From: Candidatus Sulfotelmatobacter sp.
Lineage (GTDB): Bacteria; Acidobacteriota; Terriglobia; Terriglobales; Acidobacteriaceae
DNA length: 64,000 nt
Direction of reading: 5' to 3'
NCBI GenBank assembly: GCA_049583505.1
Contig: JBAUVZ010000217.1
Span: 362-64,361, forward strand
The stretch's first letter is position 1, and every line of letters starts with the position of its first letter. The notes beneath the pieces are model-generated. The model saw only the letters and a list, made by a program, of their open reading frames with translations, was not told the DNA's origin and did not search any database. Position numbers and translations under genes: made by a program. Shown in pieces: positions 38,283-54,240 of the stretch.

Positions 38283-38443
38283 GCTCTGATCTCCCCAATC
38301 TGCGGGAGGAATGCCCATGATCCCGCTGAGTGCAGAGGCAAGGAGGGATTTGCATCGCACTTGCGGTTGAAGGTGGACTCTGTTTCTCAGCAAATGCTCG
38401 AATTGCCCCGCTACCCAAAACCCCTACCACGTTTTCGCCCGTT

Positions 38444-38959: not shown

Positions 38960-41900
38960 TTAAAAGGTGAATCTCGCAGAGAACTGAAGCTGTCGCGGAT
39001 TGAACGCCGTGCGCGGCAATCCAAAGTTTGTATTTGGCGTCGTTGGAATGAACAGAGTCGTTCCGATTGGGGTAGGAGCCAACGACCCCCCAGGAACCGA
39101 GATTCCCCCGTTCGGGCAGGCCACGGATGGCGAGCCCTGCTGAATTGCCCGGGTCATGGCGTCGTTGTAATGCTTTGGAACGCCTCCGCAAAACACAGGT
39201 GAGCCGTAAACACCGGTAACTTCATCAAAATTGGCCCGGTTCAGCAGGTTGAACGCATCGAACGCGAGGTTCGCGGTCAAGCGGTCATTGATGTGCACAG
39301 CCCGGGTTACCCGCAGGTCCCAGTTGTAATACGGATCGCCGGTGTACGTATTCCTGTCGATCATGGTCTTGCAGTCTTGTACGTCGGGACATGAGCCCGC
39401 GACGAAGGCGGAGCCGCCGACGCGGTCCGTGGAACCGCCGGCAACATCGTTTAGGGTGTTGCTGCCGTAATAAATCGTGAAAGGCCGGCCCGATTCCAGG
39501 GTGACGATATTGCTCAGCTCAAAATTTCGCCACGGCCCATTTTGCGGCGCAATAGCGGTAAAGTTGGCCACCACGCGATGCCGGGCATCCTGGTTGGAGT
39601 TGGCGCGTTCCGCCGCGTAGTCAAACTGGTTGGGCGGCAGGTTGATGAAGGTCGTGAAGTTGCCATTGTCGATGGTGTGGGAATAGGTGTAGTTGGCCGT
39701 CAGGCTGAAATGCTTCCCACGTTCAAGCACGGTCAGCGTTCCACCGTGGTAAATGGCGTTGGCAACGTCGTTGTTGTAATCTTCGAGGCCCGAGCTGATG
39801 GTTCGCAGGCCGGAGCCAAGAGCACCACCGAAGAAGGGCCCTAGCCCGGCAATCGCGCCTGTTCCAAGGGTCGGTGTTCCGGTGCAGGGCGAGAGTGTGC
39901 CATCGGCATTGAGCCATCCCGGCACCCATTCCGGCAGCGGGTCGGTGACTGCCGACTTGGTGGTGCCCGCCGGGCAGGGGATGTTGAGGTTGTTCCCGCG
40001 AACCAACTTGTGGGCCTCCACGAAAAGATAGCTTAGCTGGAGTGCAAAACCACGGCCGAGCTGGTGATCAATCTCGAAGCTGCCCTGCTCGGCATAAGGC
40101 GCCCGCGCGTTGTGGTCCATGCCACCCTCGCCAATGCCGCAAGCACCGGTGGTAAAGCAGGTGCCGGCCATCTCTACAGACGGGAAGGCCGTATTATAGG
40201 CACCTGTTTGTATGATTTTGGCTGCAAGACAAGGCGCCTCCGGAACACCAGCGCAGGGTGAGCCGGGAGGGCCGGGCGATGGCGGGTCTGCCAGAAGCTG
40301 ATAACCCTGCCCAGCCTGCGCTAGATTGGACGCGATGTTGGGAAACTTCTGGGGCTGAATTCCGGCGCCGCTGCAAATGGCTGCGATACCCGATGTCGCC
40401 TGATTGCCGCACTGGTACCCTGCCACAATCTTCTGCGTGTTGGGCACGAAGAAGAAGGTCAGATTTTGCCGGTCGAAGAAAATCCCGTATCCCGCGCGAA
40501 TCACTGTACTGCTGTTAGGAGCATAAGCTAGCCCGATACGCGGCTGAAACTCGTTGTAGTCATTGTTCACAAATGCCGAGAGGCCGGTTTCATAATCCCA
40601 TCGCAAGCCGTAATTCAGGGTAAATTTGGGAGTCAGTTTCCATTGATCCTGCGCGAACCCGCCCCAGTATCCGTGGTTAATATTCCGGCTGAAGCCGTTA
40701 AATAGCGAGGAAGGGTAAGCATTGGCCCACGTCGAATTAGGGAATCCGCCGCCGTTGAGAGGATTGGCTGTGGTAACGGTCGGAGTGCACGGAGTGGGGC
40801 CGGAGGCATTGCCGCCACAGGCAGTGGGATTGGTCGGCAGCGGTGTGCCAGCATACACAAACACGACGCCGTTATCTTGGGGAACTGGACATGGGATGGT
40901 AGATGCGTCGAGGCCCGTACCGGCGGTTGGATAGCTCGCGCCGAAATTCCTGTTGAAATATTCTGCGAAATCTGTGAAGCAGCTTATGCCGGGTACGAGC
41001 AGGCGTGTAGGCATAAAGCCGGGGAAGTTCTCCAGACTCGTCAGCCAGTTGCCATCAACTCCAAACTTTGCAAGGTGATTGCTCTTGACCCAGGAGAGGG
41101 ACTCTGAGAGTTGGACTCGAGTCTCGTAAAGCCGGTCGTTCGTTCCGAAATTATGGCCGACTTCGAGATCATTCAGGATGCTGAAGTCCGGCTGGCCCGT
41201 CGCGCCGGGAAAGTTGTAGTGCCGGCGCGCGTATTGTGCGAGCACCGTATTGACTAAATTGGACCTCAGTGACGAGTTCACGGTGGCGACGACGGCCTGG
41301 TCGCGAATGAAAAGATCGCGGCCTCCGCTGGGCACACCCACGCCTCCACCATCCAGTGTTTGCCCCACAAGTTGGTTCGTTGATCGGCTGTCCTCCACGT
41401 CGTAGCGGAAAGCCAGGCGATTGTTCGTGGTCAGTTGATGGTCGATTCTGGCAAAACCGGAATCGTCGTTGCCGGTTTTCAGAAAGCCTTGCAGAAATCC
41501 GAAAGCTTGGCCCTGGGTGATATTGGCCGGATTGCCGGCAAAATTGGGCAGACACGTGTTGACCGCGCCGAGGCACGCCTCGGGAGCCAGCCCCATCAGC
41601 GCCTTGGCTTGGTCTATGAGCAAAATGTTGTTGACCAGATCGGGCGGATAGACCGGGGATTGGGCGCTGCGCTTACCTTCATAGTTGAGAAAGAAGAAAG
41701 TCTTGTCCCTTACAATGGGCCCGCCCAGCGAAGCACCGAACGAGTTCTGCCGAACAGCGTGCGGCAGCGGGGGAGGCTGTAGCGGCGAGTGCGCGTCGAA
41801 GGCGCTGTTTTGAAAAAATTCGTAGAGCGAACCATGCAAATTGTTGGTACCTGACTTGGTCACGATGTTAACGATTCCGCCCATCGCACGGCCGTATTCC

Positions 41901-42601
41901 GCGCCAAAGCTGTTGTTCACGACGCGGAACTCCTGCACGGACTCCTGGGGGGGCGTGGAGCGCTGGATGCCACTGGCGGAGTTGACGAAGTCAGCGCCGT
42001 CCACCGTGATCTCGTTGCTGAACGAGCGCATACCGCCAAACGAGATTTGTGTCACTTCAAACTCGGTGAAAGTTGTGCCCAGGCTGGTGCGGCTAGTGGC
42101 CACACCGGGAGTGAGCAGCGCAAAATCCGTAAACACGCGACTGCTTATGGGCAACGACTCAATCTGTTCGGTCTCGACGACCTGGCTGATCTCGGTCTTG
42201 GTGGGCTCGATGAGTGCGGCTTCGGTGGTCACGGTAATGACTTCGGAGGCGCCCGCAACCTTCAAAACAGGGCTGACGGTGAAGACTTGGCCAACGGTAA
42301 GGACGATGCCAGTCTGCTGATACTTGGCGAAGGTGCGTGCGGTAACCGTTAACTCGTATTTCCCGGGGGGAAGGTTGGGTACTACGAAAAAGCCCGTCGT
42401 GTTAGTTGTTGCCTGAAAACTTTGGTTGGTATCGGGCTCACGCACAACCACCTGCGCGCTAACCACCACTCGCCCTGCAGCGTCGACGACCGTGCCGTTC
42501 AGCTGCGCGAAGCTAAGGGCACCTTGAGACACGGCGAATGGCGCAGAAGCTGCCAGTACAACCAGGAGGCAAAGAACAACACCCAACAAGCGTGTTCTCA
42601 T
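38960..42601 (-). CDS. TonB-dependent receptor with N-terminal carboxypeptidase-regulatory-like domain
   Basis: Signal peptide, then a CarboxypepD_reg-like beta-sandwich (GTVVDAAGRVV..A.V.V....T...F.A.T...G.F.V.NLPPGKYELTV). A plug and a long barrel follow, with a terminal aromatic residue (SARFTF). Start set at ATG 42601. Confidence 0.85.
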   Translation of the reverse strand: MRTRLLGVVLCLLVVLAASAPFAVSQGALSFAQLNGTVVDAAGRVVVSAQVVVREPDTNQSFQATTNTTGFFVVPNLPPGKYELTVTARTFAKYQQTGIVLTVGQVFTVSPVLKVAGASEVITVTTEAALIEPTKTEISQVVETEQIESLPISSRVFTDFALLTPGVATSRTSLGTTFTEFEVTQISFGGMRSFSNEITVDGADFVNSASGIQRSTPPQESVQEFRVVNNSFGAEYGRAMGGIVNIVTKSGTNNLHGSLYEFFQNSAFDAHSPLQPPPLPHAVRQNSFGASLGGPIVRDKTFFFLNYEGKRSAQSPVYPPDLVNNILLIDQAKALMGLAPEACLGAVNTCLPNFAGNPANITQGQAFGFLQGFLKTGNDDSGFARIDHQLTTNNRLAFRYDVEDSRSTNQLVGQTLDGGGVGVPSGGRDLFIRDQAVVATVNSSLRSNLVNTVLAQYARRHYNFPGATGQPDFSILNDLEVGHNFGTNDRLYETRVQLSESLSWVKSNHLAKFGVDGNWLTSLENFPGFMPTRLLVPGISCFTDFAEYFNRNFGASYPTAGTGLDASTIPCPVPQDNGVVFVYAGTPLPTNPTACGGNASGPTPCTPTVTTANPLNGGGFPNSTWANAYPSSLFNGFSRNINHGYWGGFAQDQWKLTPKFTLNYGLRWDYETGLSAFVNNDYNEFQPRIGLAYAPNSSTVIRAGYGIFFDRQNLTFFFVPNTQKIVAGYQCGNQATSGIAAICSGAGIQPQKFPNIASNLAQAGQGYQLLADPPSPGPPGSPCAGVPEAPCLAAKIIQTGAYNTAFPSVEMAGTCFTTGACGIGEGGMDHNARAPYAEQGSFEIDHQLGRGFALQLSYLFVEAHKLVRGNNLNIPCPAGTTKSAVTDPLPEWVPGWLNADGTLSPCTGTPTLGTGAIAGLGPFFGGALGSGLRTISSGLEDYNNDVANAIYHGGTLTVLERGKHFSLTANYTYSHTIDNGNFTTFINLPPNQFDYAAERANSNQDARHRVVANFTAIAPQNGPWRNFELSNIVTLESGRPFTIYYGSNTLNDVAGGSTDRVGGSAFVAGSCPDVQDCKTMIDRNTYTGDPYYNWDLRVTRAVHINDRLTANLAFDAFNLLNRANFDEVTGVYGSPVFCGGVPKHYNDAMTRAIQQGSPSVACPNGGISVPGGSLAPTPIGTTLFIPTTPNTNFGLPRTAFNPRQLQFSARFTF

Positions 42602-42686
42602 AAAGTCCCCTTCCTGAGCGAATCGTTTCCAATGCAAAAGCAGAAACACGGCCCAAACAGCCAATCTGAGAGCCGACTAGCAGTCC

Positions 42687-42885: not shown

Positions 42886-43743
42886 TTACCGGATTCCCGG
42901 CACGGCCAGCAGCTCCCCAAGGCTGCGTAGGACACGGTGTGGCCTTCTGCCCGGAGGCTGCCTGGCCCAGTCGGACGCTTTCGAGATGCCCGTGGTCACC
43001 CCGAAACCCACGGCGCCCCCTTGTCGCGCCATAATCATTTCGACCAGAGGATCGTCTCCGACCACCCCCACCTTGCTCTTGGGGATGCCCAGCCTTTTCG
43101 CCACTAACCTCAATGCGTGGAGGGATGGTTTCCCGGTGAGAATCATGGGCACGCGTGTGATCCTGCGCACCGCTGCCGAGATCGCGTAGGAATAACCCAT
43201 GGTCTTGCCGCCAGCAGTAGCGAAAAATGGGACGTCCGAAGCTACATACAGCTCGGCCCCGTTCCAGATCGCCTTCACGGCAGCCTCGATGTCTTTCATG
43301 CGGCAGTCGGGATGCCATCCGATGTAGACGGCATCGACACGGTCAGTACCTTCGTCGTTGGGGAAAACCGCCTGCATTCCTGCCCGTGCCAGCGGCTGTC
43401 CAACGCCGGGGGTCCCTAACACCAGAACTCGCTCAACACTGCGGCGGGGCATAAGGTCGGCGGCCACGCTGGAGGGAGTGAGCAGAGCCTCATCGGAGAT
43501 CGGCAGGCCGACAGCGCGCAGCTTGGGCGCCTGTTCTTCCGGTGGATAGTTCGTTCCATTGGTGAGGACAACGAAAGGAATGCCGCGAGCCTTTAATGCG
43601 TTCAGTATCTCAACGGCGCCGGGCAGTACTTGATATCCGCTTAGGGAACGATCACCCAAGACCAAGGTGCCATCGAGGTCAAACACAAAACCCTGTACGG
43701 GTCTGAGCCGTCCATCCTTGCGAAGGCTCGATCTGTGTTTCAT
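42886..43743 (-). CDS. HAD-IIA family phosphatase (NagD / p-nitrophenylphosphatase-like)
   Basis: DLDGTL nucleophile motif, LTNG and a C-terminal GDDP motif. The ATG overlaps the upstream stop (ATGA 43740-43743). Confidence 0.8.
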   Translation of the reverse strand: MKHRSSLRKDGRLRPVQGFVFDLDGTLVLGDRSLSGYQVLPGAVEILNALKARGIPFVVLTNGTNYPPEEQAPKLRAVGLPISDEALLTPSSVAADLMPRRSVERVLVLGTPGVGQPLARAGMQAVFPNDEGTDRVDAVYIGWHPDCRMKDIEAAVKAIWNGAELYVASDVPFFATAGGKTMGYSYAISAAVRRITRVPMILTGKPSLHALRLVAKRLGIPKSKVGVVGDDPLVEMIMARQGGAVGFGVTTGISKASDWARQPPGRRPHRVLRSLGELLAVPGIR

Positions 43744-45233
43744 GCTCTCGCCTTGCGCCGCGCCGGCGTGCCGTTCAACTCCAGCCTGAAGCCAGGCTTC
43801 TCAACCGACAGGCGTCCGATGTCGCTACGCGCTGCAAGCTGGCGAAGCAAGTGAATCACGGGGGCGAGGTCGGGATTGTAGGTTTGCGATGCGGGTCGAG
43901 CAACTTTCATGGCGTCGACTTGCTCGGCGGGCATTGTCGCGCGGAGGAGAAATTCCTCATCGCTCAGTTCGAGCCCAATTCGTCTTCGCAACTCGGCAAG
44001 AGGCAGCATATCCGGTTCCTGGCGAAGCTCGCGCGTGCGGGCCATGGAATCGATACGATCCATGACATCCGGCGCAATGGGCAGACTGGGTTTCCCGAAC
44101 CGGCCAAGGGCGTAGCGAATCACTTCGTCGGGCACAAGGGCGTAGCGTTCCTTGTCCTTGCGAGTTATGTTCATCACCGCCTGGCTCAGCAGCATCTGCG
44201 AGAAGGGGGTCATCACAATCGGCCAGCCCAATTCCTGACGCACCCGGCCTAATTCTTCAATGACTGCGCCTTCCAGGTGTGCGAGCCCGCTTTCCGCCAA
44301 GTGCCGCCGCATGGTGCCAGTCATGCCTCCGGGCAACTGGTGATGGAAGTATGCGGCGTCAAAAGGCTGCGGGCGGCCGGCAGGAAGTCCTTCCGCTTCT
44401 GCCAGGCGTGTGAAATAGCGGCTAACTTCATTCAAAGCTTCGTCGTCAATATCGATCTGGTGCCCGAGTTCTCGCAGATTGGCCACAACCCGCTCGGCGG
44501 GCGGATTGGAAATCCCGTCGCTCGCCGCGCCCGAGGCGCACTGCACCGTGCCCACCCCCCAGTTCGGTGCGTCCATGTAGACCAACTCGCCAAGCCCGAT
44601 AGTGCAGTGCGAGTGGAGTTCCAAAGGTTTGTCACCAATCACGGCCTTGACCGCCGGAATCATGTTGCGCGCGCGCAGCGGGCTCAGAAGTCCGCCGGGG
44701 TCCTTGATATATAGGGCGTCAATATCCGGACTGGCGGCAAGTTTGCGGGCACGCTCTACGTAGCGTGCGTCATCATCAATGGGGCTTACCGTGAACACTA
44801 AAGCAGCGACGACATATTCGGCGCCAACCTGTTTGATCGTGCGCGCGCAGGCGATATTGGAGTCGGCATTGTTCATCGGATCAGCCAGAGCAAAGCGGCG
44901 AATCCCGTTTTTCACGAGCGTAGCGAACGCCAGCTTCATGAATTCAGGGCTTGCCGTCTCCCAGGAAATAAAGCGGAACCCGGTCGAGAGAAATTGAAGT
45001 GGCGTATTCGGTGTGGCCCTAGCCATCAGTCGAATCCGCTCCCATGGGTCTTCTTTTTTGTAGCGGACCGCAACGCCCATGTGGGTCGAGGTAGTGAAGT
45101 CGATGGCCTTGAAACCGACGCGGTCCATGACCGGCGCAATGGTCAGAGTTTTTGCGGTGTCGATGCCAAGGGCCGCCCAAAGACTCTGGTTGCCGTCGCG
45201 GAGTGAAGTCTCAACGATCTGAATATTCGCCAC
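43740..45233 (-). CDS. Biotin-dependent carboxyltransferase subunit, oxaloacetate decarboxylase alpha / pyruvate carboxylase B / transcarboxylase 5S type, without a biotinyl domain
   Basis: IVETSLRDGNQSLWA and the HMGL-like TIM barrel (LELHSHCTIG), followed by a PYC_OADA-like region. The protein ends without an AMKM segment. Confidence 0.85.
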   Translation of the reverse strand: MANIQIVETSLRDGNQSLWAALGIDTAKTLTIAPVMDRVGFKAIDFTTSTHMGVAVRYKKEDPWERIRLMARATPNTPLQFLSTGFRFISWETASPEFMKLAFATLVKNGIRRFALADPMNNADSNIACARTIKQVGAEYVVAALVFTVSPIDDDARYVERARKLAASPDIDALYIKDPGGLLSPLRARNMIPAVKAVIGDKPLELHSHCTIGLGELVYMDAPNWGVGTVQCASGAASDGISNPPAERVVANLRELGHQIDIDDEALNEVSRYFTRLAEAEGLPAGRPQPFDAAYFHHQLPGGMTGTMRRHLAESGLAHLEGAVIEELGRVRQELGWPIVMTPFSQMLLSQAVMNITRKDKERYALVPDEVIRYALGRFGKPSLPIAPDVMDRIDSMARTRELRQEPDMLPLAELRRRIGLELSDEEFLLRATMPAEQVDAMKVARPASQTYNPDLAPVIHLLRQLAARSDIGRLSVEKPGFRLELNGTPARRKARA

Positions 45234-45236
45234 AGT

Positions 45237-45686
45237 TCATGCCTCTGGACGCACGCGCATCAGAACTTCGCCATACTCGACCGCTCCGCCGTTCTTCACC
45301 AATATCTCAACTACCTCGCCTTTTACGCCCGCACGGACCGTGTGCATGAGTTTCATGACTTCGATGATGCCGACCATTGTCTCCTCCGCGACCTTCGACC
45401 CAACTTCCACGAACGGAGGCTCACCCGGCTTGGGCGTGACATAGAAGATTCCCAGCAGTGGAGCGGTGATTTCCAGCAGGCCCGGTTCAGATGCCGGCTT
45501 TGGTGCCGGCTGTAGCGGCGAATTTGGCGGCGGCGAGCCTGGTGGCGCGGAAGCGGAAGCCTGCGGCAGCGCAGACCCTCGCTGTAGACTTAATTTCACA
45601 CCATCCATCTCGAGCGTCAATTGATCGAAGCTCGATTCCTCGAGGATGCGCATGATCTCGGCCACATCTTTGGCCGTGAGCGTCAA
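45237..45686 (-). CDS. Biotin carboxyl carrier protein (BCCP)
   Basis: C-terminal GIIEVMKLMHTVRAGVKGEV (biotinyl-Lys in EVMKL) and a Pro/Ala-rich linker. The TTG start is preceded by GGAGG and overlaps the upstream stop (TTGA 45683-45686). Confidence 0.85.
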   Translation of the reverse strand: MTLTAKDVAEIMRILEESSFDQLTLEMDGVKLSLQRGSALPQASASAPPGSPPPNSPLQPAPKPASEPGLLEITAPLLGIFYVTPKPGEPPFVEVGSKVAEETMVGIIEVMKLMHTVRAGVKGEVVEILVKNGGAVEYGEVLMRVRPEA

Positions 45687-46732
45687 CGGCGGCCTCCAAA
45701 GATGTTCATCACATGCGAAAGCGGATTCTCCGCCGGCTTCGCAACGGGGGCTTTGTCTTTGCCAGACCAGACCGTCTCGGGACGGCTCTGCAACAAAATG
45801 ATCTCGCCCCGGTGATCAATCGCCCATTCGATATCCTGGGGCCGCCCGTAATGACGCTCGATTTTGCGGCCAATTTCCGCCAGCGCCTCCAGTTCCTCGT
45901 CGCTAATCGAAGGTGCGCGCCGAAACTCTTCCGGAGTTTCCATATGCTTGATCCCGCCGCTCTCCGCGGGCACGTCTTGTATGCGCTTGTCGGAAATATC
46001 ACGCACCGAAATTTGGCCTGTTATTTTGCCGATGACAAAGCGATCGGGTGTGACTTCACCGCTCACTACAGCGGAGCCGAGACCCCAAGCTGACTCGATG
46101 GTAATCACGGAGCGATCGCCGGTCAGCGGGCTGCGCGTAAACATCACTCCCGCCGAGCGCGCCTCTACCATCTTTTGGACGACGACCGCAATCGCCACTC
46201 CGTTTTCCGGCGTGCCGTCTTTGAGGCGGTACGAGATCGATGGAACGGAGTACAGGCTGGCCCAACAAGATCGGACGTACTCCAAAACAGTCTCGCTGCC
46301 CTTCACCCAGAGATAAGTATCCTGCAGTCCGGCGAAACTGGCTTCCTCCGAATCCTCCGAAGTAGCCGAAGAGCGTACTGCCAATGGCGAACTGAGATCC
46401 GGTCCGCACAGATCTTCATGCGCCGCCACGATATCTGCGCAAACGTCTTCCGGCAACGGCGCGCTCTTGACACGGGTGCGAAGTTCTTCGGACAACAGGC
46501 GAATTTCTCTTAGGTCCTGTAGCGACAGCGCCTCCACCCGTGAGCGGATACGGTTTTCCTTTTCCAGTTCGGCCAAGACTCGTTCAAACCCCTGAGTGGT
46601 TACGACGAAACCAGGTGGCACGGCGATATTGGCGCGGGTCAACTCCCCCAAGGAACCGCCCTTGCCTCCAACCATTGCGCGATCGGCGAGTGTAATCTCG
46701 GCGAACCAACTGATGTTTGCGGTAGAACGCAT
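45683..46732 (-). CDS. PEP synthase/PPDK N-terminal ATP-grasp domain protein (phenylphosphate synthase beta-like)
   Basis: MVGGKGGSLGEL...VPPGFVVTT, RSSATSEDS..ASFAGLQDTYL and DIEWAI are PPDK_N hallmarks. 349 aa, with no swivel or PEP-binding domains. Confidence 0.85.
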   Translation of the reverse strand: MRSTANISWFAEITLADRAMVGGKGGSLGELTRANIAVPPGFVVTTQGFERVLAELEKENRIRSRVEALSLQDLREIRLLSEELRTRVKSAPLPEDVCADIVAAHEDLCGPDLSSPLAVRSSATSEDSEEASFAGLQDTYLWVKGSETVLEYVRSCWASLYSVPSISYRLKDGTPENGVAIAVVVQKMVEARSAGVMFTRSPLTGDRSVITIESAWGLGSAVVSGEVTPDRFVIGKITGQISVRDISDKRIQDVPAESGGIKHMETPEEFRRAPSISDEELEALAEIGRKIERHYGRPQDIEWAIDHRGEIILLQSRPETVWSGKDKAPVAKPAENPLSHVMNIFGGRR

Positions 46733-46746
46733 CGTTGCTTTGAATT

Positions 46747-46788
46747 CCGGCTGTCCAATCCCGACTGTTCAATCCGGCTGTTCAGATA
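46747..46788. repeat. Three tandem ~14-nt copies of CCGRCTGTYCARAT in the cupin / ATP-grasp intercistronic spacer
   Basis: CCGGCTGTCCAATC CCGACTGTTCAATC CGGCTGTTCAGATA. The last copy covers the cupin stop codon (46782-46784). Confidence 0.7.
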
Positions 46789-47333
46789 TAAAGCTGTTTG
46801 TTAATCGGAATGCCGTGCTCGCGGCAATAGCTCTCGTAGTGATTGATGAACCACCACACATCGACCGTTTCGACGAATTTGCCGTTGTCATCGTAAAACT
46901 CGAGCGGCCCCTGGAGCCAACCGAACAACTTGACGCCGTTGGGATGGTCGCTCACGAGGGTATGGACCAGTCCCGGCGTCTCGTAGATGAAGTTGCCGGG
47001 ACCGGCAACCCAATCGTATTCGAGATAGCGGGCGCTGCCCTCGAGGCAGATCATTACGACGGTGCCGCGATGCTTGTGTGTGCCAATGACGCCGGCAGAC
47101 TTTATCCACAGAATGTTACTGAAAATGTTATGGCGAGTATCGAAAAGAAGATGGCGAATTGCGGCATTGGGGCCGAACGGCACCCAGGGACTCTCTTGCT
47201 CCGAAGAGCCGACAAACGTGCCCGCGATGCCGTGCCGCTTGATCACATCCGTATAAGCTTCCGGTACGTCCACGATTTTGTAAGCCGTAGACGGCGGAGC
47301 CGTCATTCTCGTAATGCTCGATGTTGTCATCAT
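46782..47333 (-). CDS. Cupin-fold protein, 2,4'-dihydroxyacetophenone dioxygenase (DAD)-like family
   Basis: Cupin His cluster GTHKHRGTVVMICLEG...PGLVHTL. The family assignment comes from pattern memory only. ATG 47333/47330 is preceded by AGGAGG; the ORF track extends to 47411. Confidence 0.65.
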   Translation of the reverse strand: MMTTSSITRMTAPPSTAYKIVDVPEAYTDVIKRHGIAGTFVGSSEQESPWVPFGPNAAIRHLLFDTRHNIFSNILWIKSAGVIGTHKHRGTVVMICLEGSARYLEYDWVAGPGNFIYETPGLVHTLVSDHPNGVKLFGWLQGPLEFYDDNGKFVETVDVWWFINHYESYCREHGIPINKQLYI

Positions 47334-47424
47334 GCGCCTCCTCGCGCGGCTTGGCCGCGCCGTCAACTCTGCATCTGCGGTGGTTGAAGCTCTCGTACCG
47401 AATGCCGACAAATAGAAAGCAAGA

Positions 47425-49245
47425 CTACTGAAGAATCGTCACCACGCCCCGGCCGCCATCCACGCGAATGCGCTGGCCGTCCTTAATCTTCTGTGTCGCT
47501 GTGCCTGTGCCCACTACTGCCGGCAATCCGTATTCCCGGGCAACGATTGCCGCGTGGCTCATCGAGCCGCCGATGTCGGAGACGGCTGCCGCAATCTTCT
47601 GAAAAACCGGCGCCCAACTCGGGTTGGTAACGTGACAGACGAGAATGTCGCCGCGTCGCAGGCGGTCAATTTCGTCCACCGACATCACCACCCGGGCGAT
47701 GCCCTCGACTACGCCGCTGGACGCGGCGAATCCCTTGATCTCATTGGAATCCGGCTTCTCGCCAGCGGCCAGCCATGAATCCAGGTTTTCACGGGTAATG
47801 CCCCACAGCATGACAATGGCAGGGTCATCAATGACGTCGGGGACGGGGCCCAGGGCCGGGGGAGTTTCGTGCCTCGCCCATTCGGCAATCGCTGCTTTGC
47901 GCTCCTGCACAATCGGCATCCAGCGCGCGGGGCCACGCGGCGGGGAGCCGTTTGACCACGAGGTCATGAGATCGATAATCGCCGCCTCGACTTCATAGTG
48001 AGTCAGGTGAAAAATGTCCTCGGCGTTTGGGAAGAAACCACGCTCGGCCAATAGCGCCCCAAATTCCCGAATCTTGTTAAAGAACAGATTGGTGTACCAA
48101 TGCTCACAATAAAATTTGTGTCCTTCGACGTAAGGGAACACGCGATGCACGAGCTGAATCATCTGGTCATACGCGGCGCGCTCTTGCTCGCTATTGAGCA
48201 GCTCGCGGTAATCATGGATGAGCTGCTGGCGCTCAGCCATCAGCTTGGCGACCGGCCGCTCGATGCGTTCGCCGGCTTTCAAATTGGCGATGTAGCCGGG
48301 CAGCGAGGCAAAGGGCATCGAGAGATCGTCGTTCCAGGAACGATGGTAGTGGTAGAAGCCGTCACCAACATTAATGTTGAACCACGGGTCGCGCGAGACC
48401 GCCAACTCCTCGAGCCACTTCCGGCCAGATTTAGACCGCTCCAGAGCTTGCATGATGTCGCCGGGAGCAGCGCCATCGTGGAAAAGGGCATCGACTCCCA
48501 GTTCAATAGCGCATTTGGCGAGGCGGCGGAGCTCGTCGTCGGGACGAAAGATTTCCGCTTCCATGCCGGCGACCATGCAGGCCACCGTCTGGTCGCTGAT
48601 TTCCGGGAAGGCCTTTTTACAAAAATCAAAGAAAGTAAGATATGCGCCATAGCCGAGCAGGAGAAACTCGAAGTGATGGTGCCACATGCGGAAGTAGCCT
48701 TCGAGCGTCTTCTGGTAGATATCGAGGAGGTAGTGGTTGGAGGCAATGCCGCGCCCAGCGCGGACATGCTCCAGGGGCTCGAACTCGGGCAGCGAAAGCT
48801 TCGGTAGCGCCTCGGCAGCCCGGATCAGGGCCAGCATCTTGTTTTTCCAGTGTGCGAATAATTCTTCCCAGTGCTCGTAGTAATAGAAGGCCCGTTGCTG
48901 GAATTCCTTTGTGCGCCGGGCAATCTCGACAGGATCGGTCACCGCGTTGCCGCCGATGTAGATTCGCCCGTTGATGATGCGGTAATCAATTCCGAGCGTC
49001 GTCGGGAGGCTGTGCACCCGCGTGTTGGCCGCGCCCAGGGCGCAATAAGCGGCTTCTGCCGTGGTGACGTCGAACACGCTCATTGGCTCCGGGAAATGCA
49101 TGGAGTTGTAAAACCAGAAGCGGTCGTCATCTTCTTTGGCGAACTGCATGTAGTAGGGATAGGCGGCTTGCGCCGTTTGCGTGCCCGGGATGACCTTCAA
49201 GGAACTCGGAAGCGGAAAGCATCGCGTGTTGACGGTTGTGCTCAT
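47425..49245 (-). CDS. PEP-utilizing enzyme with C-terminal phosphohistidine swivel domain (phenylphosphate synthase alpha-like)
   Basis: C-terminal VCHVTNPSWAPVFQKIAAAVSDIGGSMSHAAIVAREYGLPAVVG is the swivel His domain. It follows about 480 aa with no ATP-grasp. ATG 49245 is preceded by GGAAGG. Confidence 0.8.
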   Translation of the reverse strand: MSTTVNTRCFPLPSSLKVIPGTQTAQAAYPYYMQFAKEDDDRFWFYNSMHFPEPMSVFDVTTAEAAYCALGAANTRVHSLPTTLGIDYRIINGRIYIGGNAVTDPVEIARRTKEFQQRAFYYYEHWEELFAHWKNKMLALIRAAEALPKLSLPEFEPLEHVRAGRGIASNHYLLDIYQKTLEGYFRMWHHHFEFLLLGYGAYLTFFDFCKKAFPEISDQTVACMVAGMEAEIFRPDDELRRLAKCAIELGVDALFHDGAAPGDIMQALERSKSGRKWLEELAVSRDPWFNINVGDGFYHYHRSWNDDLSMPFASLPGYIANLKAGERIERPVAKLMAERQQLIHDYRELLNSEQERAAYDQMIQLVHRVFPYVEGHKFYCEHWYTNLFFNKIREFGALLAERGFFPNAEDIFHLTHYEVEAAIIDLMTSWSNGSPPRGPARWMPIVQERKAAIAEWARHETPPALGPVPDVIDDPAIVMLWGITRENLDSWLAAGEKPDSNEIKGFAASSGVVEGIARVVMSVDEIDRLRRGDILVCHVTNPSWAPVFQKIAAAVSDIGGSMSHAAIVAREYGLPAVVGTGTATQKIKDGQRIRVDGGRGVVTILQ

Positions 49246-49511: not shown

Positions 49512-50042
49512 CTATCGGCTTCCGTTCCGCGATTTGACGAAACCTCGATCAAGAGGTGCGCGGCTTTCATCGTTGTTCAGGTGAACGAATTTCTTCAGGA
49601 GTTGCATAAAAATCTTTTGCTCTTCCCTGTTCAGCGCTTGAAGCAGGCGGCTGGCGAGAACGGCGCTGCGGGGAATAAGCTTTTTCAGGAGCGCGGCCCC
49701 TTCCGGAGTCAGATGAAGCAGGCGAAAGCGTTTGCTCTTCATCGGCATCATCCGGCGGACAAGTCCCCGCTCCTCCAGTCGCACGGCGAGATCGGCGGCG
49801 GTGGAAGTATCGAGGGCACAAAATCTCGCCAACGTGACTTGATCAATCTCCGGATGCTCCTGAAGAACACGCAGCACGCAATATTGGATAGGGGTAATAC
49901 CATTACCCATGGTCGAATGAAACAACGAAACCGCTATCTGTTGGGCGCGCCGGATTAAGTGGCCCGGTTCGTCGTACACCTCTCCGGCCGACCCGTTGTT
50001 GCGGCGGATCCTCTGCGTAGATCGCTTGGCAGTAAAGCTCAT
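49512..50042 (-). CDS. MarR family transcriptional regulator
   Basis: ITPIQYCVLRVL....IDQVTLARFCALDTSTAADLAVRLEERGLV.R is the wHTH MarR pattern. It is divergent from the CoA ligase gene. Confidence 0.85.
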   Translation of the reverse strand: MSFTAKRSTQRIRRNNGSAGEVYDEPGHLIRRAQQIAVSLFHSTMGNGITPIQYCVLRVLQEHPEIDQVTLARFCALDTSTAADLAVRLEERGLVRRMMPMKSKRFRLLHLTPEGAALLKKLIPRSAVLASRLLQALNREEQKIFMQLLKKFVHLNNDESRAPLDRGFVKSRNGSR

Positions 50043-50156: not shown

Positions 50157-51995
50157 TTGCCGCTACGGCCAGTACGCTTCTTCTCCCCCGATGTCGAACT
50201 AACCCGCCGTGCGGACGGCAGTTTGCTGATGCGGTCCGTGGAGCCTTTGGGGGAATACAACTCTCGCGTGGGGGAGTGGCTGGACCGGTGGGCGCGGGAA
50301 GCGCCAGACCGTACTTTTATTGTTGAGCAGACTCCAACGGGAGAGCGATGTACCTCTTACGGAGAGGCTCGAAAGTCGGTGCTGCTGCTGGCTGAGGGCT
50401 TGCTCAGCTACGGACTGGGTCCGGAGCGGCCGCTCGCAATTCTCGCCGAAAATGGGATCGATCACGCACTCATCATGTTGGCGGCGGTTTACGTGGGCAT
50501 TCCGGTTGCTCCCATTGCTCCTGCTTACGCCCTGCAATCGATCGATTACGTAAAGCTGTCCTATGCTTTTAAGCTACTGACCCCCGGAATGGTCGTGGTC
50601 GACGATGGGGCGCGTTATCGCCAACCGATTGAATACGCTCTCAAAACCGATATTCCAGTAATCGCGCTACGCAACGCGTCAGCCGCTGCCAAATGGCGCG
50701 ATCTTGCATCGCTGCAGGGTGATGGCAGTCATCACGGTGAAGTGCGCGAGGCAGCGGCGCGGGTCGATCGGCAAACGATCGCAAAGTTTCTGTTTACCTC
50801 CGGCTCGACCGGCATGCCGAAAGTTGTCATCAACACGCATGGCATGATCTGCTGCAATTCCCAGATGAAGCGCCAGGTTGCGCCATGCCTGGAGGAAGAA
50901 CCGCCCGTGATGGTCGATTGGGCTCCCTGGAATCACACCGCGGGCAGCAACAGCAATTTCAGTATCATTCTTCACAATGGTGGAACTCTGTATATCGATC
51001 CCGGAAAACCGACTCCCGCAAAGTTTGCCGCCAGCCTGGAACTGCTCCGGCGGGTTTCGCCGACCATTTACTTCAATGTGCCTCGCGGCTACGAACTGTT
51101 GCTACCGCACTTGGAGGCCGACCGCAAATTTCGCGAGCATTTTTTTCGCCGTCTGCAGTTTCTCTGGTATGCAGCGGCTTCGATGCAGCCGGCGACCTGG
51201 TTCGATCTCGAACGGCTCGCCGTGGAAACGGTTGGGCACAGGATTTTAACCGTGAGCGGCCTCGGTATGACCGAAACCGCACCCATTGCGCTCTTCGGCA
51301 ACGCCGAGGCAAGCGGCCCCGGCGTGGTTGGCATACCGGTCGCGGGCGTCGAGCTCAAGCTCATCCCGGACGATACCAGCTTCGAAGTGCGTTATCGGGG
51401 TCCGAATGTCACGCCGGGCTATTGGCGCGATCCTGCGGCCACCGAGGCTGTTTTCGATGAAGAAGGATTCCTGCGCTCCGGCGATCTGCTGAGTTTTATT
51501 GACCCGCAACGTCCGCAGGCGGGTCTGCGTTTCGATGGAAGGATGAATGAAGTTTTCAAGCTGGACTCGGGCACTAAGGTCAGCGCCGGCAAGTTGCGCC
51601 TGGACGCACTGGACGTGCTGCGCCCCCTGGCCCAGGAAGTTGTGGTCGCCGGAGCTGACCGCAAAGACGTGCGCATCCTTATTTTTCCCGACTGGGAGGT
51701 ATGCGCCGCCGCTGCCGGTCTGGATGGCGCCGCTAAGCCCGCACAAATCGCCGTGAACCCAACCGTCCGGGCTATGTTTCACGAACGCCTCGCCAAACTC
51801 TACTCCGCCGGAACCGGCAGCTCCAACCGCATCGTCGCTGGGTTGCTGGTCGAAGACCCGCCATCCAGCGAGGCCGGCGAGCTGACAGAGAAAGGCACGG
51901 TCAACAGCCGCGCCTTGCAGCGCAATCGGCCTGAGCTTCTCGACGCTTTGTTCGGGGACCGAGATGAACGCGTGCTGCGTGCAGGACGTGCTTGA
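50157..51995 (+). CDS. Feruloyl-CoA synthetase-like ANL ligase (hydroxycinnamate-CoA ligase candidate)
   Basis: FFSPDVELTRRADGSLLMRSVEPLGEY...WAREAPDRTF resembles Fcs-type N-termini. FTSGSTGMPKVV (A3 core) and GLGMTETAP are present. Start proposed at TTG 50157. Confidence 0.75.
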   Translation: MPLRPVRFFSPDVELTRRADGSLLMRSVEPLGEYNSRVGEWLDRWAREAPDRTFIVEQTPTGERCTSYGEARKSVLLLAEGLLSYGLGPERPLAILAENGIDHALIMLAAVYVGIPVAPIAPAYALQSIDYVKLSYAFKLLTPGMVVVDDGARYRQPIEYALKTDIPVIALRNASAAAKWRDLASLQGDGSHHGEVREAAARVDRQTIAKFLFTSGSTGMPKVVINTHGMICCNSQMKRQVAPCLEEEPPVMVDWAPWNHTAGSNSNFSIILHNGGTLYIDPGKPTPAKFAASLELLRRVSPTIYFNVPRGYELLLPHLEADRKFREHFFRRLQFLWYAAASMQPATWFDLERLAVETVGHRILTVSGLGMTETAPIALFGNAEASGPGVVGIPVAGVELKLIPDDTSFEVRYRGPNVTPGYWRDPAATEAVFDEEGFLRSGDLLSFIDPQRPQAGLRFDGRMNEVFKLDSGTKVSAGKLRLDALDVLRPLAQEVVVAGADRKDVRILIFPDWEVCAAAAGLDGAAKPAQIAVNPTVRAMFHERLAKLYSAGTGSSNRIVAGLLVEDPPSSEAGELTEKGTVNSRALQRNRPELLDALFGDRDERVLRAGRA

Positions 51996-52036: not shown

Positions 52037-54175
52037 CTACTGCAATGCTGACGTCTTGTCCCACTGTTCGAAGCTCACTCCCTCGGCCGCAAGGCGCTCA
52101 ATCAATGCGGCCGGGCGCCAATAATGACCGAGCGTTTCATGATAGTGGCGAATGCGCTCTAGCACGAGGGGAAGTCCCAGCGCATCGGCGTAAAACATCG
52201 GCCCTCCCATGTGGCGTGGAAAACCGTAGCCGCTGGTCCAGACCACATCAATATCGGCGGCGCGTGCTGCGATCCCTTCTTCGAGCACCATGGCCCCGAC
52301 ATTGATCAGCGACAACAAGCATCGCTCAACGATCTCTTGATCGCCGATCTCGCGCCGCTTTATACCTCTCTCGGACGCAAGCTTCTCAATGAGGCTGATC
52401 ACTTCGGGGTCGGGCACAGCTTCCCGGCTGCCACTTTCATAACGATAGAAACCGCGGCTGGTCTTCTGCCCAAGGCGGCCCATCTCCGTGAGGCGGTCGG
52501 CGATGACGAAGTACGGGTCAGGGCGGCTCTCCCGCTTGAAAAGCTGGATGCGCGCCTTGGTACCGACATCGTTGCCCCCCAGGTCGCTTACTCGCTGCGG
52601 CCCCATGGCGAAGCCAAAGTTCTCGAGCGCGTCGTCAACCTGTGCCGGTGTGGCGCCCTCCAGCAGCAACTGCTCGGCTTCGCGCCAGTAGCCATCGAGC
52701 ATCATCCGGTTCCCGATGAAACCGAAAGCGTCACGCGAAATAACCGCAATCTTTTTGAGCAACTTTGCGACGCACAATGCCGCTGACAGGCTGTCGGGCG
52801 TGGTATAGGAAGTGCGAACAATCTCCAAAAGCTTCGACGCGTGTGCCGGAACAAAAAAATGCAGGCCCAATACGCGTTCTGGATGCGCCGTGGCACGGGC
52901 CAGTTCGATCACAGAAAGCGTAGAGGTATTGGTGGCGATGAGGCGCTGAGAAGGAACAAGAGAGTCGAGGCGCGACAAGACCTCCTTTTTCAACTCCAGG
53001 TCTTCGAATACAGCTTCGATTACAAGATCGGCATCGGCCACCTCGGCCAAAGCCGGGCTGCTTCTGATGCGCTGAATACGCTCCTCGGCGACGCTTTGGG
53101 TAATGCGGCCACGCTTAACGCTGGATGCGTAGCCTGATTGAACAGACTCACGGCTGCGATTCAGGGCGGCAGGATCGTTATCATTGACCAGCACTTCGAG
53201 TCCAGCGTCTGCAAAAGCCATAGCGATGCCGCTGCCCATCGTCCCGACGCCAACGATCGCCACGCGCCGGATTGCTGGTGGCTGAGCTGGTCTGACATTG
53301 ACAGAAGACACTCCCGGTAATTTTCCGGACTCGCGCTCTGCGAAGAATACGTGCCGCAGCGCCAGACTCTCGCGCGAAGCCAATGACTTTTGTGCAAGAC
53401 CGGCTTCTATGGCGATCCCTTCCGAGAATGGCAGTTTGGAAGCTTTGATCGCCTCGATTACCAGATACTGCGTTGTGCGTCCCCTCAGCGCGCGGCCATG
53501 ACGAAGCAGTGCAGCGTCAATCGCGCCTTCATCGAGGTCGTCGACGACGGTGCGGTTACACGTCGGGCGCGGGCCGAGTTGCGCGTCTACAACGCGTTTG
53601 CAGAAACTGAGCGCGGCCTCCCGTAGATCTCCTTCCGCAACCTCATCCACCAGTCCCTTGGCCTTGGCATCAAGCCCGGAAATCGGTGTGCCAGACAGAA
53701 TCATATCTAACGCCGCGCTGGCGCCGATCAACCTTGGGAGGCGTTGTGTCCCGCCAGCGCCCGGAATGATTCCCAGCGTGATCTCCGGCAATCCGAGTTT
53801 TGCGTCTTTGTGCGCGAGGCGATAATGACAGGCCATGGCCAGTTCCAGTCCACCGCCGACAGCGAGTCCCTGCATCGCGGCGACCACAGGGACGGGAGAG
53901 GATTCAATTTTGCTCTGAACTGGCTGAAAAGAGGGCTCGCCTTGCGGACGATCGAACTCAGTGATATCGGCGCCTGCGCTGAACATCTCGCCGCGGGACG
54001 TGATTAACAACACCTTGACGCCGCCGTTCTGTTCGGCGCGCGCGAAGGCATCCACGAGCCCCTGCCTCACAGAGTGGCTGATCGCGTTCACTGGCGGATT
54101 GTCGGTCCAAATCAGCCCCACAGGCCCGAAGACATCGAATGTCACGATTGTTGACGCGGCTGTGTGTCCGTTCAT
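52037..54175 (-). CDS. Bifunctional enoyl-CoA hydratase / 3-hydroxyacyl-CoA dehydrogenase (FadB/FadJ-like)
   Basis: An N-terminal crotonase fold (FSAGADI, GGGLELAMACH) followed by a Rossmann motif VAIVGVGTMGSGIA and 3HCDH domains. Start set at ATG 54175. Confidence 0.9.
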   Translation of the reverse strand: MNGHTAASTIVTFDVFGPVGLIWTDNPPVNAISHSVRQGLVDAFARAEQNGGVKVLLITSRGEMFSAGADITEFDRPQGEPSFQPVQSKIESSPVPVVAAMQGLAVGGGLELAMACHYRLAHKDAKLGLPEITLGIIPGAGGTQRLPRLIGASAALDMILSGTPISGLDAKAKGLVDEVAEGDLREAALSFCKRVVDAQLGPRPTCNRTVVDDLDEGAIDAALLRHGRALRGRTTQYLVIEAIKASKLPFSEGIAIEAGLAQKSLASRESLALRHVFFAERESGKLPGVSSVNVRPAQPPAIRRVAIVGVGTMGSGIAMAFADAGLEVLVNDNDPAALNRSRESVQSGYASSVKRGRITQSVAEERIQRIRSSPALAEVADADLVIEAVFEDLELKKEVLSRLDSLVPSQRLIATNTSTLSVIELARATAHPERVLGLHFFVPAHASKLLEIVRTSYTTPDSLSAALCVAKLLKKIAVISRDAFGFIGNRMMLDGYWREAEQLLLEGATPAQVDDALENFGFAMGPQRVSDLGGNDVGTKARIQLFKRESRPDPYFVIADRLTEMGRLGQKTSRGFYRYESGSREAVPDPEVISLIEKLASERGIKRREIGDQEIVERCLLSLINVGAMVLEEGIAARAADIDVVWTSGYGFPRHMGGPMFYADALGLPLVLERIRHYHETLGHYWRPAALIERLAAEGVSFEQWDKTSALQ

Positions 54176-54211
54176 GTCTCTATCTTTAGCATATGACAAA
54201 ATGCTTTCATG

Positions 54212-54225: not shown

Positions 54226-54240
54226 CGTCGCCTTGCCTAG

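Follow-up and report, generated by a model that had tools for sequence, protein, structure and literature searches.

The closest described systems to the locus analyzed here are acvABCDEF of Sphingobium sp. SYK-6 (Higuchi et al., bioRxiv 10.1101/2022.04.28.489975) and hpeHICBAD(EF) of Rhodococcus rhodochrous GD02 (Dexter et al. 2022, PMC9618137). Both combine a PpsA/PpsB-like two-subunit dikinase with a separate biotin carboxyl carrier protein (BCCP), a biotin carboxylase (BC), a PycB-like carboxyltransferase (CT) and a NagD-like HAD phosphatase, NagD being the nearest characterized homologue of HpeD (PMC9618137), and both are embedded in vanillate and protocatechuate catabolism. In SYK-6, deleting any single acv gene, including the BC gene acvD, abolished growth on acetovanillone (bioRxiv 10.1101/2022.04.28.489975); housekeeping AccC is therefore no substitute there, and making good a lost BC is no trivial matter. 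In published surveys, hpe genes frequently lie apart, with kinase and carboxylase genes clustered in only 52 of 836 cases (PMC13101465).

We find the same gene order, minus the BC and plus a cupin of the 2,4'-dihydroxyacetophenone dioxygenase (DAD) family between the kinase genes, on the minus strand at 42886-49245 of the window, the 64-kb stretch of DNA analyzed here. Dikinase, BCCP, CT and phosphatase are all shared with Acv/Hpe, as is the setting among vanillate and protocatechuate genes, here joined by ferulate genes. Unlike Acv/Hpe, the operon has a MarR-family rather than an AraC-type regulator, its host is a soil acidobacterium, and neither the operon nor the remaining window encodes a BC. 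On balance, we favor the reading that this MarR-led, Candidatus Sulfotelmatobacter-like operon encodes a modified Acv/Hpe pathway for hydroxyphenylethanones, in which the BC is supplied from elsewhere and a cupin branch has been added.

All six ORFs of this close-packed operon lie where an earlier note had placed them, and its account of their junctions agreed with the sequence, and that of their domains with the Pfam and NCBIfam matches. They encode, in order, dikinase subunit A, the cupin, dikinase subunit B, BCCP, CT and a HAD-IIA phosphatase. The stop codon of subunit B overlaps the TTG start of BCCP at 45683-45686, and that of CT overlaps the ATG start of the phosphatase at 43740-43743; read directly from the sequence, the TGA of BCCP is followed by ACT (45236-45234) and then by the GTG start of CT at 45233. 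Directly upstream, a MarR-family gene (about 49512-50042, minus strand; Pfam MarR/MarR_2, start inferred from 177-aa orthologues) forms a seventh co-directional gene, identical in position and orientation in the related loci L001-L003. Beyond it, a divergent AMP-forming acyl-CoA ligase (50172-51995, plus strand, start approximate; PF00501), a conserved neighbor in L001-L003 and L089, is a candidate activator of aroyl-acetate or hydroxycinnamate. A fused enoyl-CoA hydratase/3-hydroxyacyl-CoA dehydrogenase (52037-54250, minus strand; ECH_1, 3HCDH_N, 3HCDH) is also conserved, and the beta-oxidative side-chain pathway that it represents joins at the same beta-ketoacyl-CoA. Immediately downstream lies a TonB-dependent outer-membrane receptor (38960-42664, minus strand; OMP_b-brl_4, CarboxypepD_reg, Plug), in the same position in L001-L003 and L089.

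Subunit A (606 aa; 47425-49245, minus strand), of the AcvA/HpeH/PpsA type, consists of a substrate-binding region and a C-terminal phospho-histidine swivel domain (PF00391, PEP-utilizers; residues 541-611) and scores 785 bits against NCBIfam NF006153 (PRK08296.1-5; cutoff 578). It is 77-95% identical across 80 genomes, and matches an acv-like Rhizobium cluster at 56%, Azoarcus ppsA at 44% and a cre-like gene at 41%. Subunit B (349 aa; 45683-46732, minus strand), of the AcvB/HpeI/PpsB type, is the ATP-grasp nucleotide-binding subunit (PF01326 PPDK_N, E = 4e-103), 52% identical to its Rhizobium counterpart and 44% to Azoarcus ppsB. Both subunits are thus closer to the acv type than to true pps/ppc clusters (44%) or to cre clusters (41-43%). 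On the earlier question of whether subunit A groups with PEP synthase or rifampin phosphotransferase, it falls into PRK08296 and into neither of those models.

BCCP (149 aa; 45237-45686, minus strand; PF00364, and TIGR00531 at 108.7 bits) has an AccB-like N-terminal domain, a Pro/Ala linker and a biotinyl domain with the motif IIEVMKLMH; the N-terminal domain and MKL motif are kept in BC-less and BC-containing loci alike, and dN/dS for BCCP was 0.15-0.28. The CT (497 aa; 43740-45233, minus strand; PF00682, HMGL-like, and PF02436, PYC_OADA) is of the PycB/5S, AcvE type, carries LRDGNQS, YIKDPGG and HSHCT motifs without a fused biotinyl domain, and has PycB as its top PDB match (5ks8, E = 2e-55). 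Its metal and catalytic motifs (RDGNQS, KD, HSH) are intact, and are also retained in BC-less loci. While a pyruvate/oxaloacetate-type CT had been listed as an oddity, it is the norm for Acv/Hpe, where AcvE is itself called PycB-like at 26% identity to PycB (bioRxiv 10.1101/2022.04.28.489975). The HAD-IIA (NagD-like) phosphatase (285 aa; 42886-43743, minus strand; PF13344, PF13242, TIGR01460; DLDGT) is of the AcvF/HpeD type.

We recovered no BC in the 64-kb window by motif regexes, by tblastn with a cluster BC as query, or with an HMM of 45 cluster BCs run with filters off against the six-frame translation (best E 0.47, 5 bits), which upholds the earlier claim. Nor is there a BC within ±10 kb in orthologous loci whose contigs span 0.5-1.9 Mb. 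Across 62 related loci with both BCCP and CT, the BC was present in 39 and absent in 23. The 3-nt BCCP-CT junction (45234-45236, minus strand) is the exact site of a ~1.37-kb BC gene in those 39 loci, among them L021, L023, L005, L087, L096 and L097. BC-less loci have BCCP-CT gaps of 5-200 nt and occur in Acidobacteriota, Steroidobacteraceae and Hyphomonadaceae. On gene trees, the embedded cupin state changed 6-7 times and BC presence 5-6 times, the latter by Fitch parsimony in each of 60 bootstrap trees. The same gene set is shared by more than 20 independent assemblies, a recurrence far beyond chance. The architecture described earlier as unusual, with no BC and an inserted cupin, is not singular: the cluster is widespread and highly labile, and this is one of its states.

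These comparisons suggest that the BC gene (the acvD/hpe BC equivalent) was cleanly excised, as has happened at least five times in the gene family, and hence that carboxybiotin may be made by a BC from elsewhere in the genome. In BC-less loci, dN/dS was 0.06-0.12 for CT and 0.15-0.33 for BCCP, indicating purifying selection as in BC-containing loci, and no column of the BCCP, CT or HAD alignments separates the two groups, which argues against altered chemistry. Given this selection and the lack of convergent substitutions in BC-less lineages, a BC encoded elsewhere is the likeliest reading of the BC-less operon. Against this reading, in a small sample the acvD-like orthologues (3 of 3) lay within canonical clusters, and none stood alone. 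Subunits A and B, BCCP, CT and HAD are 73-85% identical to those of L021 and L023, which have the canonical A-B-BCCP-BC-CT-HAD order, and 42-56% identical to those of a canonical cluster that the cultured species Rhizobium leguminosarum carries; acetoacetate-CoA ligase and amidohydrolase genes follow that cluster, as in hpeEF. It is this uncharacterized Rhizobium cluster, together with synteny, that supports the putative orthology to Acv/Hpe.

For the cupin (182-183 aa; 46782-47333, minus strand; Cupin_7/Cupin_2), the most probable start is the ATG at 47333 or that at 47330, which are preceded by a GAGGAGG Shine-Dalgarno sequence and give the orthologue length; a TTG start at 47411 was set aside. 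It matches DAD structures (PDB 4p9g/5bpx) at E = 1e-20, and DAD is also the best structural match of its AF2 model, followed by Dke1. H85, H87, H123, Y102, E117 and V91 are invariant among 120 homologues, and the cupin is most likely a C-C-cleaving Fe(II) dioxygenase. Across four phyla or classes, the gene is found at varying positions within acv-like clusters or next to them. Two loci (L006, L071) hold A-cupin-B-HAD modules and have no gene for a carboxylase within ±10 kb, which suggests that phosphorylated intermediates may enter an O2-dependent branch. The gain of an iron dioxygenase gene is a hint that lignin-derived aryl ketones may have an oxygen-dependent side route not yet described.

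We propose the following pathway. By homology to the described enzymes, subunits A and B would phosphorylate ketones of the acetovanillone or 4-hydroxyacetophenone type at the phenolic OH, converting ATP to AMP, Pi and aryl phosphate. Biotinyl-BCCP and the PycB-like CT, with carboxybiotin presumably supplied through housekeeping AccC or an unlinked BC paralogue, would then carboxylate the acetyl methyl group to give a phospho-aroylacetate, from which the phosphatase would strip the phosphate. The adjoining ligase and beta-oxidation-type genes could convert the aroylacetate to vanillate or 4-hydroxybenzoate, from where the window's LigM-like demethylase and protocatechuate genes would take over. 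The cupin may act on these same ketones, probably in phosphorylated form, at an alpha-oxygenated or enolizable side chain, in a branch running from kinase to dioxygenase to phosphatase.

A different reading would dispense with the BC: the CT would charge biotin from a donor (for example oxaloacetate, the ancestral half-reaction) and pass CO2 to the phospho-aryl ketone as an ATP-free single-CT transcarboxylase. The CT, a homologue of 5S/PycB, has its motifs intact, selection maintains BCCP and CT with the BC missing, and both the failure of AccC to rescue the SYK-6 acvD deletion and the lack of a stand-alone acvD among the three sampled orthologues fit. We nevertheless consider it unlikely, as the BC was lost independently at least five times and yet no CT or BCCP residue marks the BC-less loci, and known transcarboxylases use two different CT subunits. 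Characterized HpeCBA, moreover, strictly needs ATP and HCO3- (PMC9618137). That BCCP and CT are instead decaying remnants in an operon that carboxylates nothing is highly improbable. While a subunit considered essential is absent, more than 20 BC-less genomes have intact ORFs, the motifs for catalysis and biotinylation are retained, and dN/dS values equal to those of BC-containing loci contradict decay. Also hardly credible is a kinase pair unrelated to aryl-ketone catabolism (phenylphosphate synthase, PEP synthase or antibiotic phosphotransferase). Swivel and ATP-grasp domains are common to all of these, but PEP-synthase and Rph models cover only the swivel of subunit A (at most 139 bits against cutoffs of 600-1700), the locus, unlike Azoarcus, lacks both a CBS-domain ppsC and ppc genes, and synteny with BCCP-(BC)-CT-HAD holds in 60+ genomes.

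The cupin invites two further alternatives. It could be the productive step of a kinase-cupin-phosphatase pathway, with BC-less BCCP-CT as an enolizing helper or in a minor role. The carboxylase-free modules and the kinship to C-C-cleaving Fe dioxygenases (DAD, Dke1) would agree with this, as would the enrichment of embedded cupins in BC-less loci (15 of 22, versus 4 of 39 BC-containing loci), an enrichment dominated by one clade and not phylogenetically independent. With seven BC-less loci lacking an embedded cupin, four loci having both cupin and BC, and the BCCP biotinylation motif and CT as conserved as in BC-containing loci, we think this doubtful. A non-catalytic accessory role in the dikinase, comparable to that of PpsC, which stimulates phenylphosphate synthase, appears improbable. 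The gene does sit between the kinase subunit genes in many genomes, with gaps of 10-100 nt, and a third, stimulatory protein (a CBS-domain protein in Azoarcus) accompanies ppsAB; against this, the full DAD catalytic set (three His, Tyr, Glu) is invariant in the 120 homologues, a cupin is missing from the neighborhood of most related kinases, and there are cupin genes with no kinase, beside a LigM-like gene in Streptomyces and beside TonB receptors in Sphingobium and L091.

Read as an Acv/Hpe variant with an outside BC, the operon can be set against three further known systems. PpsABC/PpcABCD of Thauera and Azoarcus has kinase subunits of 70 kDa and 40 kDa that are homologous to A and B (44% identity) and shares the logic of phenol phosphorylation before carboxylation; the operon differs in having no CBS-domain PpsC or UbiD-type Ppc carboxylase, and its predicted carboxylation is biotin-dependent and on the side chain, whereas that of PpcABCD is on the ring. 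Shared or separate BCs are known from two-subunit PycA/PycB (PDB 5ks8) and from actinobacterial acyl-CoA carboxylases, where one AccA3 serves several AccD subunits; these provide precedent for a CT and BCCP whose BC is encoded elsewhere. The CT here is most PycB-like, while, unlike in those systems, the BCCP stands free as an AccB-like protein and a partner BC would lie outside the 64 kb. DAD of Alcaligenes sp. 4HAP (PDB 4p9g/5bpx; PMC4219425) shares with the cupin its fold, its 3-His iron site, the invariant equivalents of Tyr93, Glu108 and Val82, and a tie to the catabolism of 4-hydroxyacetophenone-type compounds. At about 30-40% identity to DAD, the cupin has an extra N-terminal segment of ~40 residues and a remodeled distal pocket, in which Trp61, Asp63 and Phe129 (phenolic-OH binding, ring stacking) are replaced by Phe/Tyr, Asn and Gly/Ala, and, unlike DAD, it is genomically coupled to an aryl kinase and a phosphatase.

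The six minus-strand open reading frames of the operon at 42886-49245 were all recovered at the coordinates reported by the earlier note, with the 4-nt overlaps that it described at 45683-45686 and 43740-43743 and with a 3-nt gap (45234-45236, read directly in the sequence) between the stop codon of the biotin carboxyl carrier protein (BCCP) gene and the GTG start of the carboxyltransferase (CT) gene. The 606-aa subunit A ends in a PEP-utilizers swivel domain (Pfam PF00391) and scored 785 bits against the NCBIfam model NF006153 (PRK08296.1-5), exceeding the cutoff, while the 349-aa subunit B is a PPDK_N protein (PF01326); together they correspond to a two-subunit aryl dikinase made of a ~70-kDa His-swivel and a ~40-kDa PPDK_N ATP-grasp protein. 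A PDB search with A matched the swivel domain alone, and none of the matches was to an HpeHI structure. Between A and B lies a gene with Cupin_7/Cupin_2 domains, whose start we corrected; it is probably the ATG at 47333 or 47330, which a GAGGAGG motif precedes, and the resulting length of 182-183 aa agrees with that of the orthologues. BCCP is a free-standing, AccB-like protein of 149 aa (PF00364) with the biotinyl-lysine motif EVMKLM, as in the Acv and Hpe systems; CT is an AcvE-type protein with HMGL-like and PYC_OADA domains and without a biotinyl domain (PDB 5ks8, E 2e-55); and the last gene encodes a NagD-like HAD-IIA hydrolase (PF13344/PF13242, TIGR01460), again as in Acv/Hpe. Because a MarR gene lies directly upstream in the same direction, we count the unit as seven genes. 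A promoter and terminator scan of 42.4-50.4 kb gave counts equal to shuffle expectation.

We then asked how widespread this arrangement is. Metagenomes from soil and peat contain hundreds of CT homologues (79-98% identical), of which those with a label belong to Candidatus Sulfotelmatobacter and Terriglobales, and three contigs carrying such homologues share the MarR-A-cupin-B-BCCP-CT-HAD unit of the window and its flanking genes. An alignment scan with A, using one genome per species, yielded 539 relatives, the best 80 of which, with A identities of 77% or more, belong to Acidobacteriota, Steroidobacteraceae, other Gammaproteobacteria, Alphaproteobacteria, Burkholderiaceae and one Verrucomicrobiia MAG. 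A tblastn classification of all loci, with the window proteins and a biotin carboxylase (BC) as queries, showed that 62 held both BCCP and CT. A ~450-aa AccC-type BC sits between the two in 39 of these; the other 23 are BC-less, with BCCP and CT spaced 5-200 nt apart, and comprise the window clade, another clade of Acidobacteriota in which the cupin may be present or absent, two Steroidobacteraceae and one Hyphomonadaceae MAG. Fitch parsimony on neighbour-joining A+CT trees required 5-6 changes for the presence of BC and 6-7 for the embedded cupin, a result shared by the observed tree and each of 60 bootstrap replicates. The architecture, which the earlier note had called unusual, is no singular oddity but one common state of a labile cluster.

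The window proteins are 73-85% identical to those of loci with the canonical order A-B-BCCP-BC-CT-HAD, and 42-56% identical to those on the Rhizobium leguminosarum plasmid pRlBT01c, a cultured reference in which the canonical order is followed by an acetoacetate-CoA ligase and an amidohydrolase. Subunit A is nearer to these canonical-order loci and the Rhizobium cluster than to pps or cre clusters, its identity being 44% to Azoarcus KH32C (bona fide ppsABC-ppc) and 41% to Rhodococcus oxybenzonivorans (cre-like). Among loci L007-L086, A is 77-95% and the cupin 73-97% identical across phyla (Acidobacteriota, Gamma-, Alpha- and Betaproteobacteria, Verrucomicrobiia and Streptomyces), values far above the expectation for vertical descent, which implies that the module has spread horizontally among soil bacteria in recent times. 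Some loci are irregular, with B apparently absent (L069, L073), CT or BC split or missing (L008, L037, L024) or CT called as two genes (L095); these may be frameshifts of long-read assembly or real pseudogenes. On the megaplasmid of Thermomicrobium roseum DSM 5159 (L094:7995-12505), an A-B pair 48% and 37% identical to that of the window has a convergent accC after it, and BCCP, CT and HAD genes are missing from its vicinity.

The claim that no BC is encoded in the 64 kb withstood motif searches, tblastn with a cluster BC and an HMM search, all of which were negative; the HMM, derived from 45 related BCs and applied without filters to the six-frame translation of the 64 kb, gave a best E of 0.47. 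The operon therefore encodes BCCP and CT without the BC that would complete the set, and its 3-nt BCCP-CT junction holds no dedicated AccC-type gene corresponding to AcvD or the Hpe BC subunit. We rejected the explanation that a BC lies just outside the window, because the window extends 43 kb to one side of the operon and 15 kb to the other, and because no BC stands within ±10 kb of orthologous loci on contigs of 0.5-1.9 Mb. An assembly artefact was likewise rejected, given 23 independent BC-less assemblies. As for an unlinked acvD-like BC, no Sulfotelmatobacter label occurs among the best 120 homologues of the BC of L021, the nearest BC-containing relative, and the orthologues of that BC with inspected context, a small sample, sat in canonical clusters in three of three cases. 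Decay of the orphaned carboxylase genes was rejected from dN/dS, which in BC-less lineages was 0.06-0.12 for CT and 0.15-0.33 for BCCP, the same ranges as in BC-containing lineages.

By these sequence criteria, the BC-less BCCP-CT pair appears to be still functional. The AccB-like N-terminal domain, EVMKLM and the CT motifs RDGNQS, KD and HSH are all kept in BC-less loci, and no column separates BC-less from BC-containing loci in the BCCP, CT or HAD alignments; A and B have one separating column each, and both are probably phylogenetic. Continued selection, retained motifs and the lack of separating columns despite repeated, independent loss fit a BC supplied from elsewhere, and they speak against a convergent change of chemistry. 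We infer that carboxybiotin for the BC-less pair would come from a BC encoded elsewhere in the genome. In SYK-6, each acv gene was deleted singly, acvD included, and every mutant lost growth on acetovanillone (bioRxiv 10.1101/2022.04.28.489975); as the acvD mutant did not grow, housekeeping AccC provides no rescue in that strain. The dedicated BC has been lost repeatedly even though it is genetically essential in SYK-6. If the BC-less pair works with a foreign BC, or with none, the minimal gene set for engineering the pathway changes.

The cupin belongs to the family of 2,4'-dihydroxyacetophenone dioxygenase (DAD), with matches to PDB 4p9g and 5bpx at E 1e-20. We mapped it onto the published DAD structure (PMC4219425) and checked 120 homologues, in all of which the three Fe-binding histidines (H85, H87, H123), Y102 (DAD Tyr93), E117 (DAD Glu108) and the equivalent of DAD Val82 are invariant. 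The cupin fold, 3-His iron site, Tyr93 and Glu108 of the DAD family are therefore all present, Tyr93 being the residue that binds the alpha-hydroxyl in DAD (PMC4219425). The residues of the 4'-hydroxyphenyl pocket are not conserved: of the DAD residues that bind the phenolic OH of the 4'-hydroxyphenyl substrate or stack on its ring, Trp61, Asp63 and Phe129 (PMC4219425), the first is replaced by F/Y70, the second by N72 (119 of 120) and the third by G/A137. An AF2 model of moderate quality (pLDDT 66) had 5bpx as its top Foldseek match (TM 0.65/0.75), followed by uncharacterised cupins and then by the acetylacetone dioxygenase Dke1. Identification of the cupin as VceA or VceB was rejected, since the SYK-6 paper describes these as another kind of enzyme, and the papers searchable contained no link between DAD cupins and acv or hpe.

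The location of the cupin gene varies. It occurs between A and B in clusters with or without BC, two genes upstream and paired with a SnoaL-like gene in L005, after the HAD gene in L078, and elsewhere 4-6 kb from the cluster; it also occurs without the kinase, beside a LigM-like gene in Streptomyces and beside TonB receptors in Sphingobium and L091, where a 509-aa Amidohydro_2 gene follows it directly. The loci L088:8995-10048 (a plasmid of Sphingobium sp. TomTYG74), L005:10001-11021 and L004:8695-10558 show the same cupin (72-80% identical) in such settings: as a pair with a SnoaL-like gene, behind a TonB receptor and adjoining a gcvT(LigM-like)-metF-purU-folD one-carbon cluster, or, in Streptomyces, with its gene overlapping the end of a GCV_T gene. 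This suggests that the cupin is tied to O-demethylation or C1 handling independently of the kinase.

Two loci in Steroidobacteraceae and Gammaproteobacteria MAGs (L006:3819-8168 and L071:9893-14350) hold an A-cupin-B-HAD module and, within 10 kb, neither BCCP nor BC nor CT; both modules adjoin a complete homogentisate pathway. The module of L071 lies directly downstream of genes for an AcsA-like ligase, HPPD, homogentisate dioxygenase, fumarylacetoacetase, a GST/MAAI-like protein, MarR and DUF6152, and its own downstream neighbours are two MFS transporters, a triple SnoaL_4 protein and a TauD dioxygenase. Since kinase and phosphatase alone would form a futile cycle, the simplest reading is that the cupin transforms a phosphorylated intermediate. 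Loss of the Asp/Trp phenol binders and the enlarged pocket would be compatible with a phosphorylated or bulkier para substituent. We think it improbable that the whole of a bolder scheme holds, in which the cupin, its phenol-binding Asp/Trp lost and its distal pocket enlarged, is an aryl-phosphate dioxygenase defining an undescribed carboxylase-independent O2 route (kinase, dioxygenase, phosphatase) for lignin-derived aryl ketones, and the BC-less BCCP-CT needs no dedicated ATP-dependent BC because it relies on a foreign BC, on transcarboxylation or on enolisation. This strongly conserved DAD-like dioxygenase is repeatedly wired into kinase genes, and its gene is also present with those of the kinase and the phosphatase in a module without any carboxylase. 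If the cupin does use phosphorylated intermediates, acetovanillone-type compounds could be turned aerobically into vanillate by a shorter route that costs less ATP, with direct use in lignin valorisation.

The operon is surrounded by genes of lignin-aromatic catabolism: a divergent AMP-forming ligase, a fused enoyl-CoA hydratase/3-hydroxyacyl-CoA dehydrogenase, LigM-like GCV_T and MTHFR-like proteins, an extradiol dioxygenase, an RraA/LigK-like aldolase, a PrpF/LigU-like isomerase, two Amidohydro_2 proteins, an aldehyde dehydrogenase, protocatechuate 3,4-dioxygenase alpha and beta subunits, a PcaL-like fusion, a PQQ dehydrogenase and a TonB-dependent receptor. Genes of two protocatechuate routes share the window (33847-35140, 56816-60317 and 62033-63232), one comprising protocatechuate 3,4-dioxygenase and the PcaL-like fusion, the other the extradiol dioxygenase with the LigK-like (RraA) and LigU-like (PrpF) lower-pathway genes. 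Of the two Amidohydro_2 proteins (61188-62177 and 36783-38393), one may be the CouO/HpeF-type beta-ketoacyl-CoA hydrolase completing the pathway. The stretch at 24736-29898, upstream of a Meth_synt_2-like gene and the PQQ dehydrogenase, encodes TPP-dependent E1 alpha and beta, an AMP-binding ligase and a saccharopine-dehydrogenase-like/DUF5938 protein. Genes for glycoside hydrolases and peptidases occupy the left 24 kb, among them those of an island at 8555-23505 (GH18, arabinofuranosidase, alpha-amylase, MGH1-like, trehalase-like, DUF2961 and an FGE-sulfatase-domain protein) with no relation to the aromatic genes.

From homology and synteny, we propose that A and B would phosphorylate the phenolic OH of ketones of the acetovanillone/4-hydroxyacetophenone type, that BCCP and CT, charged by some BC, would carboxylate the methyl group, and that the HAD phosphatase would take off the phosphate. 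The divergent ligase may then activate the aroylacetate, which would join the beta-ketoacyl-CoA node of the neighbouring beta-oxidative hydroxycinnamate route, and the resulting vanillate or 4-hydroxybenzoate would be handled further by the LigM-like demethylase and the enzymes of protocatechuate cleavage; the cupin would add a putative branch of O2-dependent C-C cleavage. As this locus and its relatives show, the Acv/Hpe pathway is common among the Steroidobacteraceae and the uncultured Acidobacteriota of peat and soil.

The Acv/Hpe pathway was first described in 2022. The acvABCDEF genes of Sphingobium sp. SYK-6 encode, in order, PpsA-like and PpsB-like kinase subunits, BCCP, BC, CT and a HAD phosphatase, and its CT, AcvE, is 26% identical to PycB (bioRxiv 10.1101/2022.04.28.489975), so a PycB-type CT, counted as unusual in the earlier note, is what this pathway normally has. 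HpeHI of Rhodococcus rhodochrous GD02 transfers phosphate to acetovanillone and 4-hydroxyacetophenone, HpeCBA uses one ATP and accepts the ketones for carboxylation only in this phosphorylated form, and HpeD, whose closest characterised homologue is NagD, dephosphorylates the carboxylated product (PMC9618137). Homologues of hpe are usually dispersed, kinase and carboxylase genes being clustered in just 52 of the 836 cases surveyed, and only four strains, or mutants derived from them, have been shown to grow on these ketones (PMC13101465). Compared with Pps/Ppc, the window lacks the CBS-domain PpsC and the UbiD-type ppc that are present in the Azoarcus KH32C reference. Compared with acv and hpe, it has exactly the same gene order, minus BC and plus the cupin; the original observation is correct and its assignment to the acv/hpe family sound, and the operon is a variant of a known pathway, not a new system.
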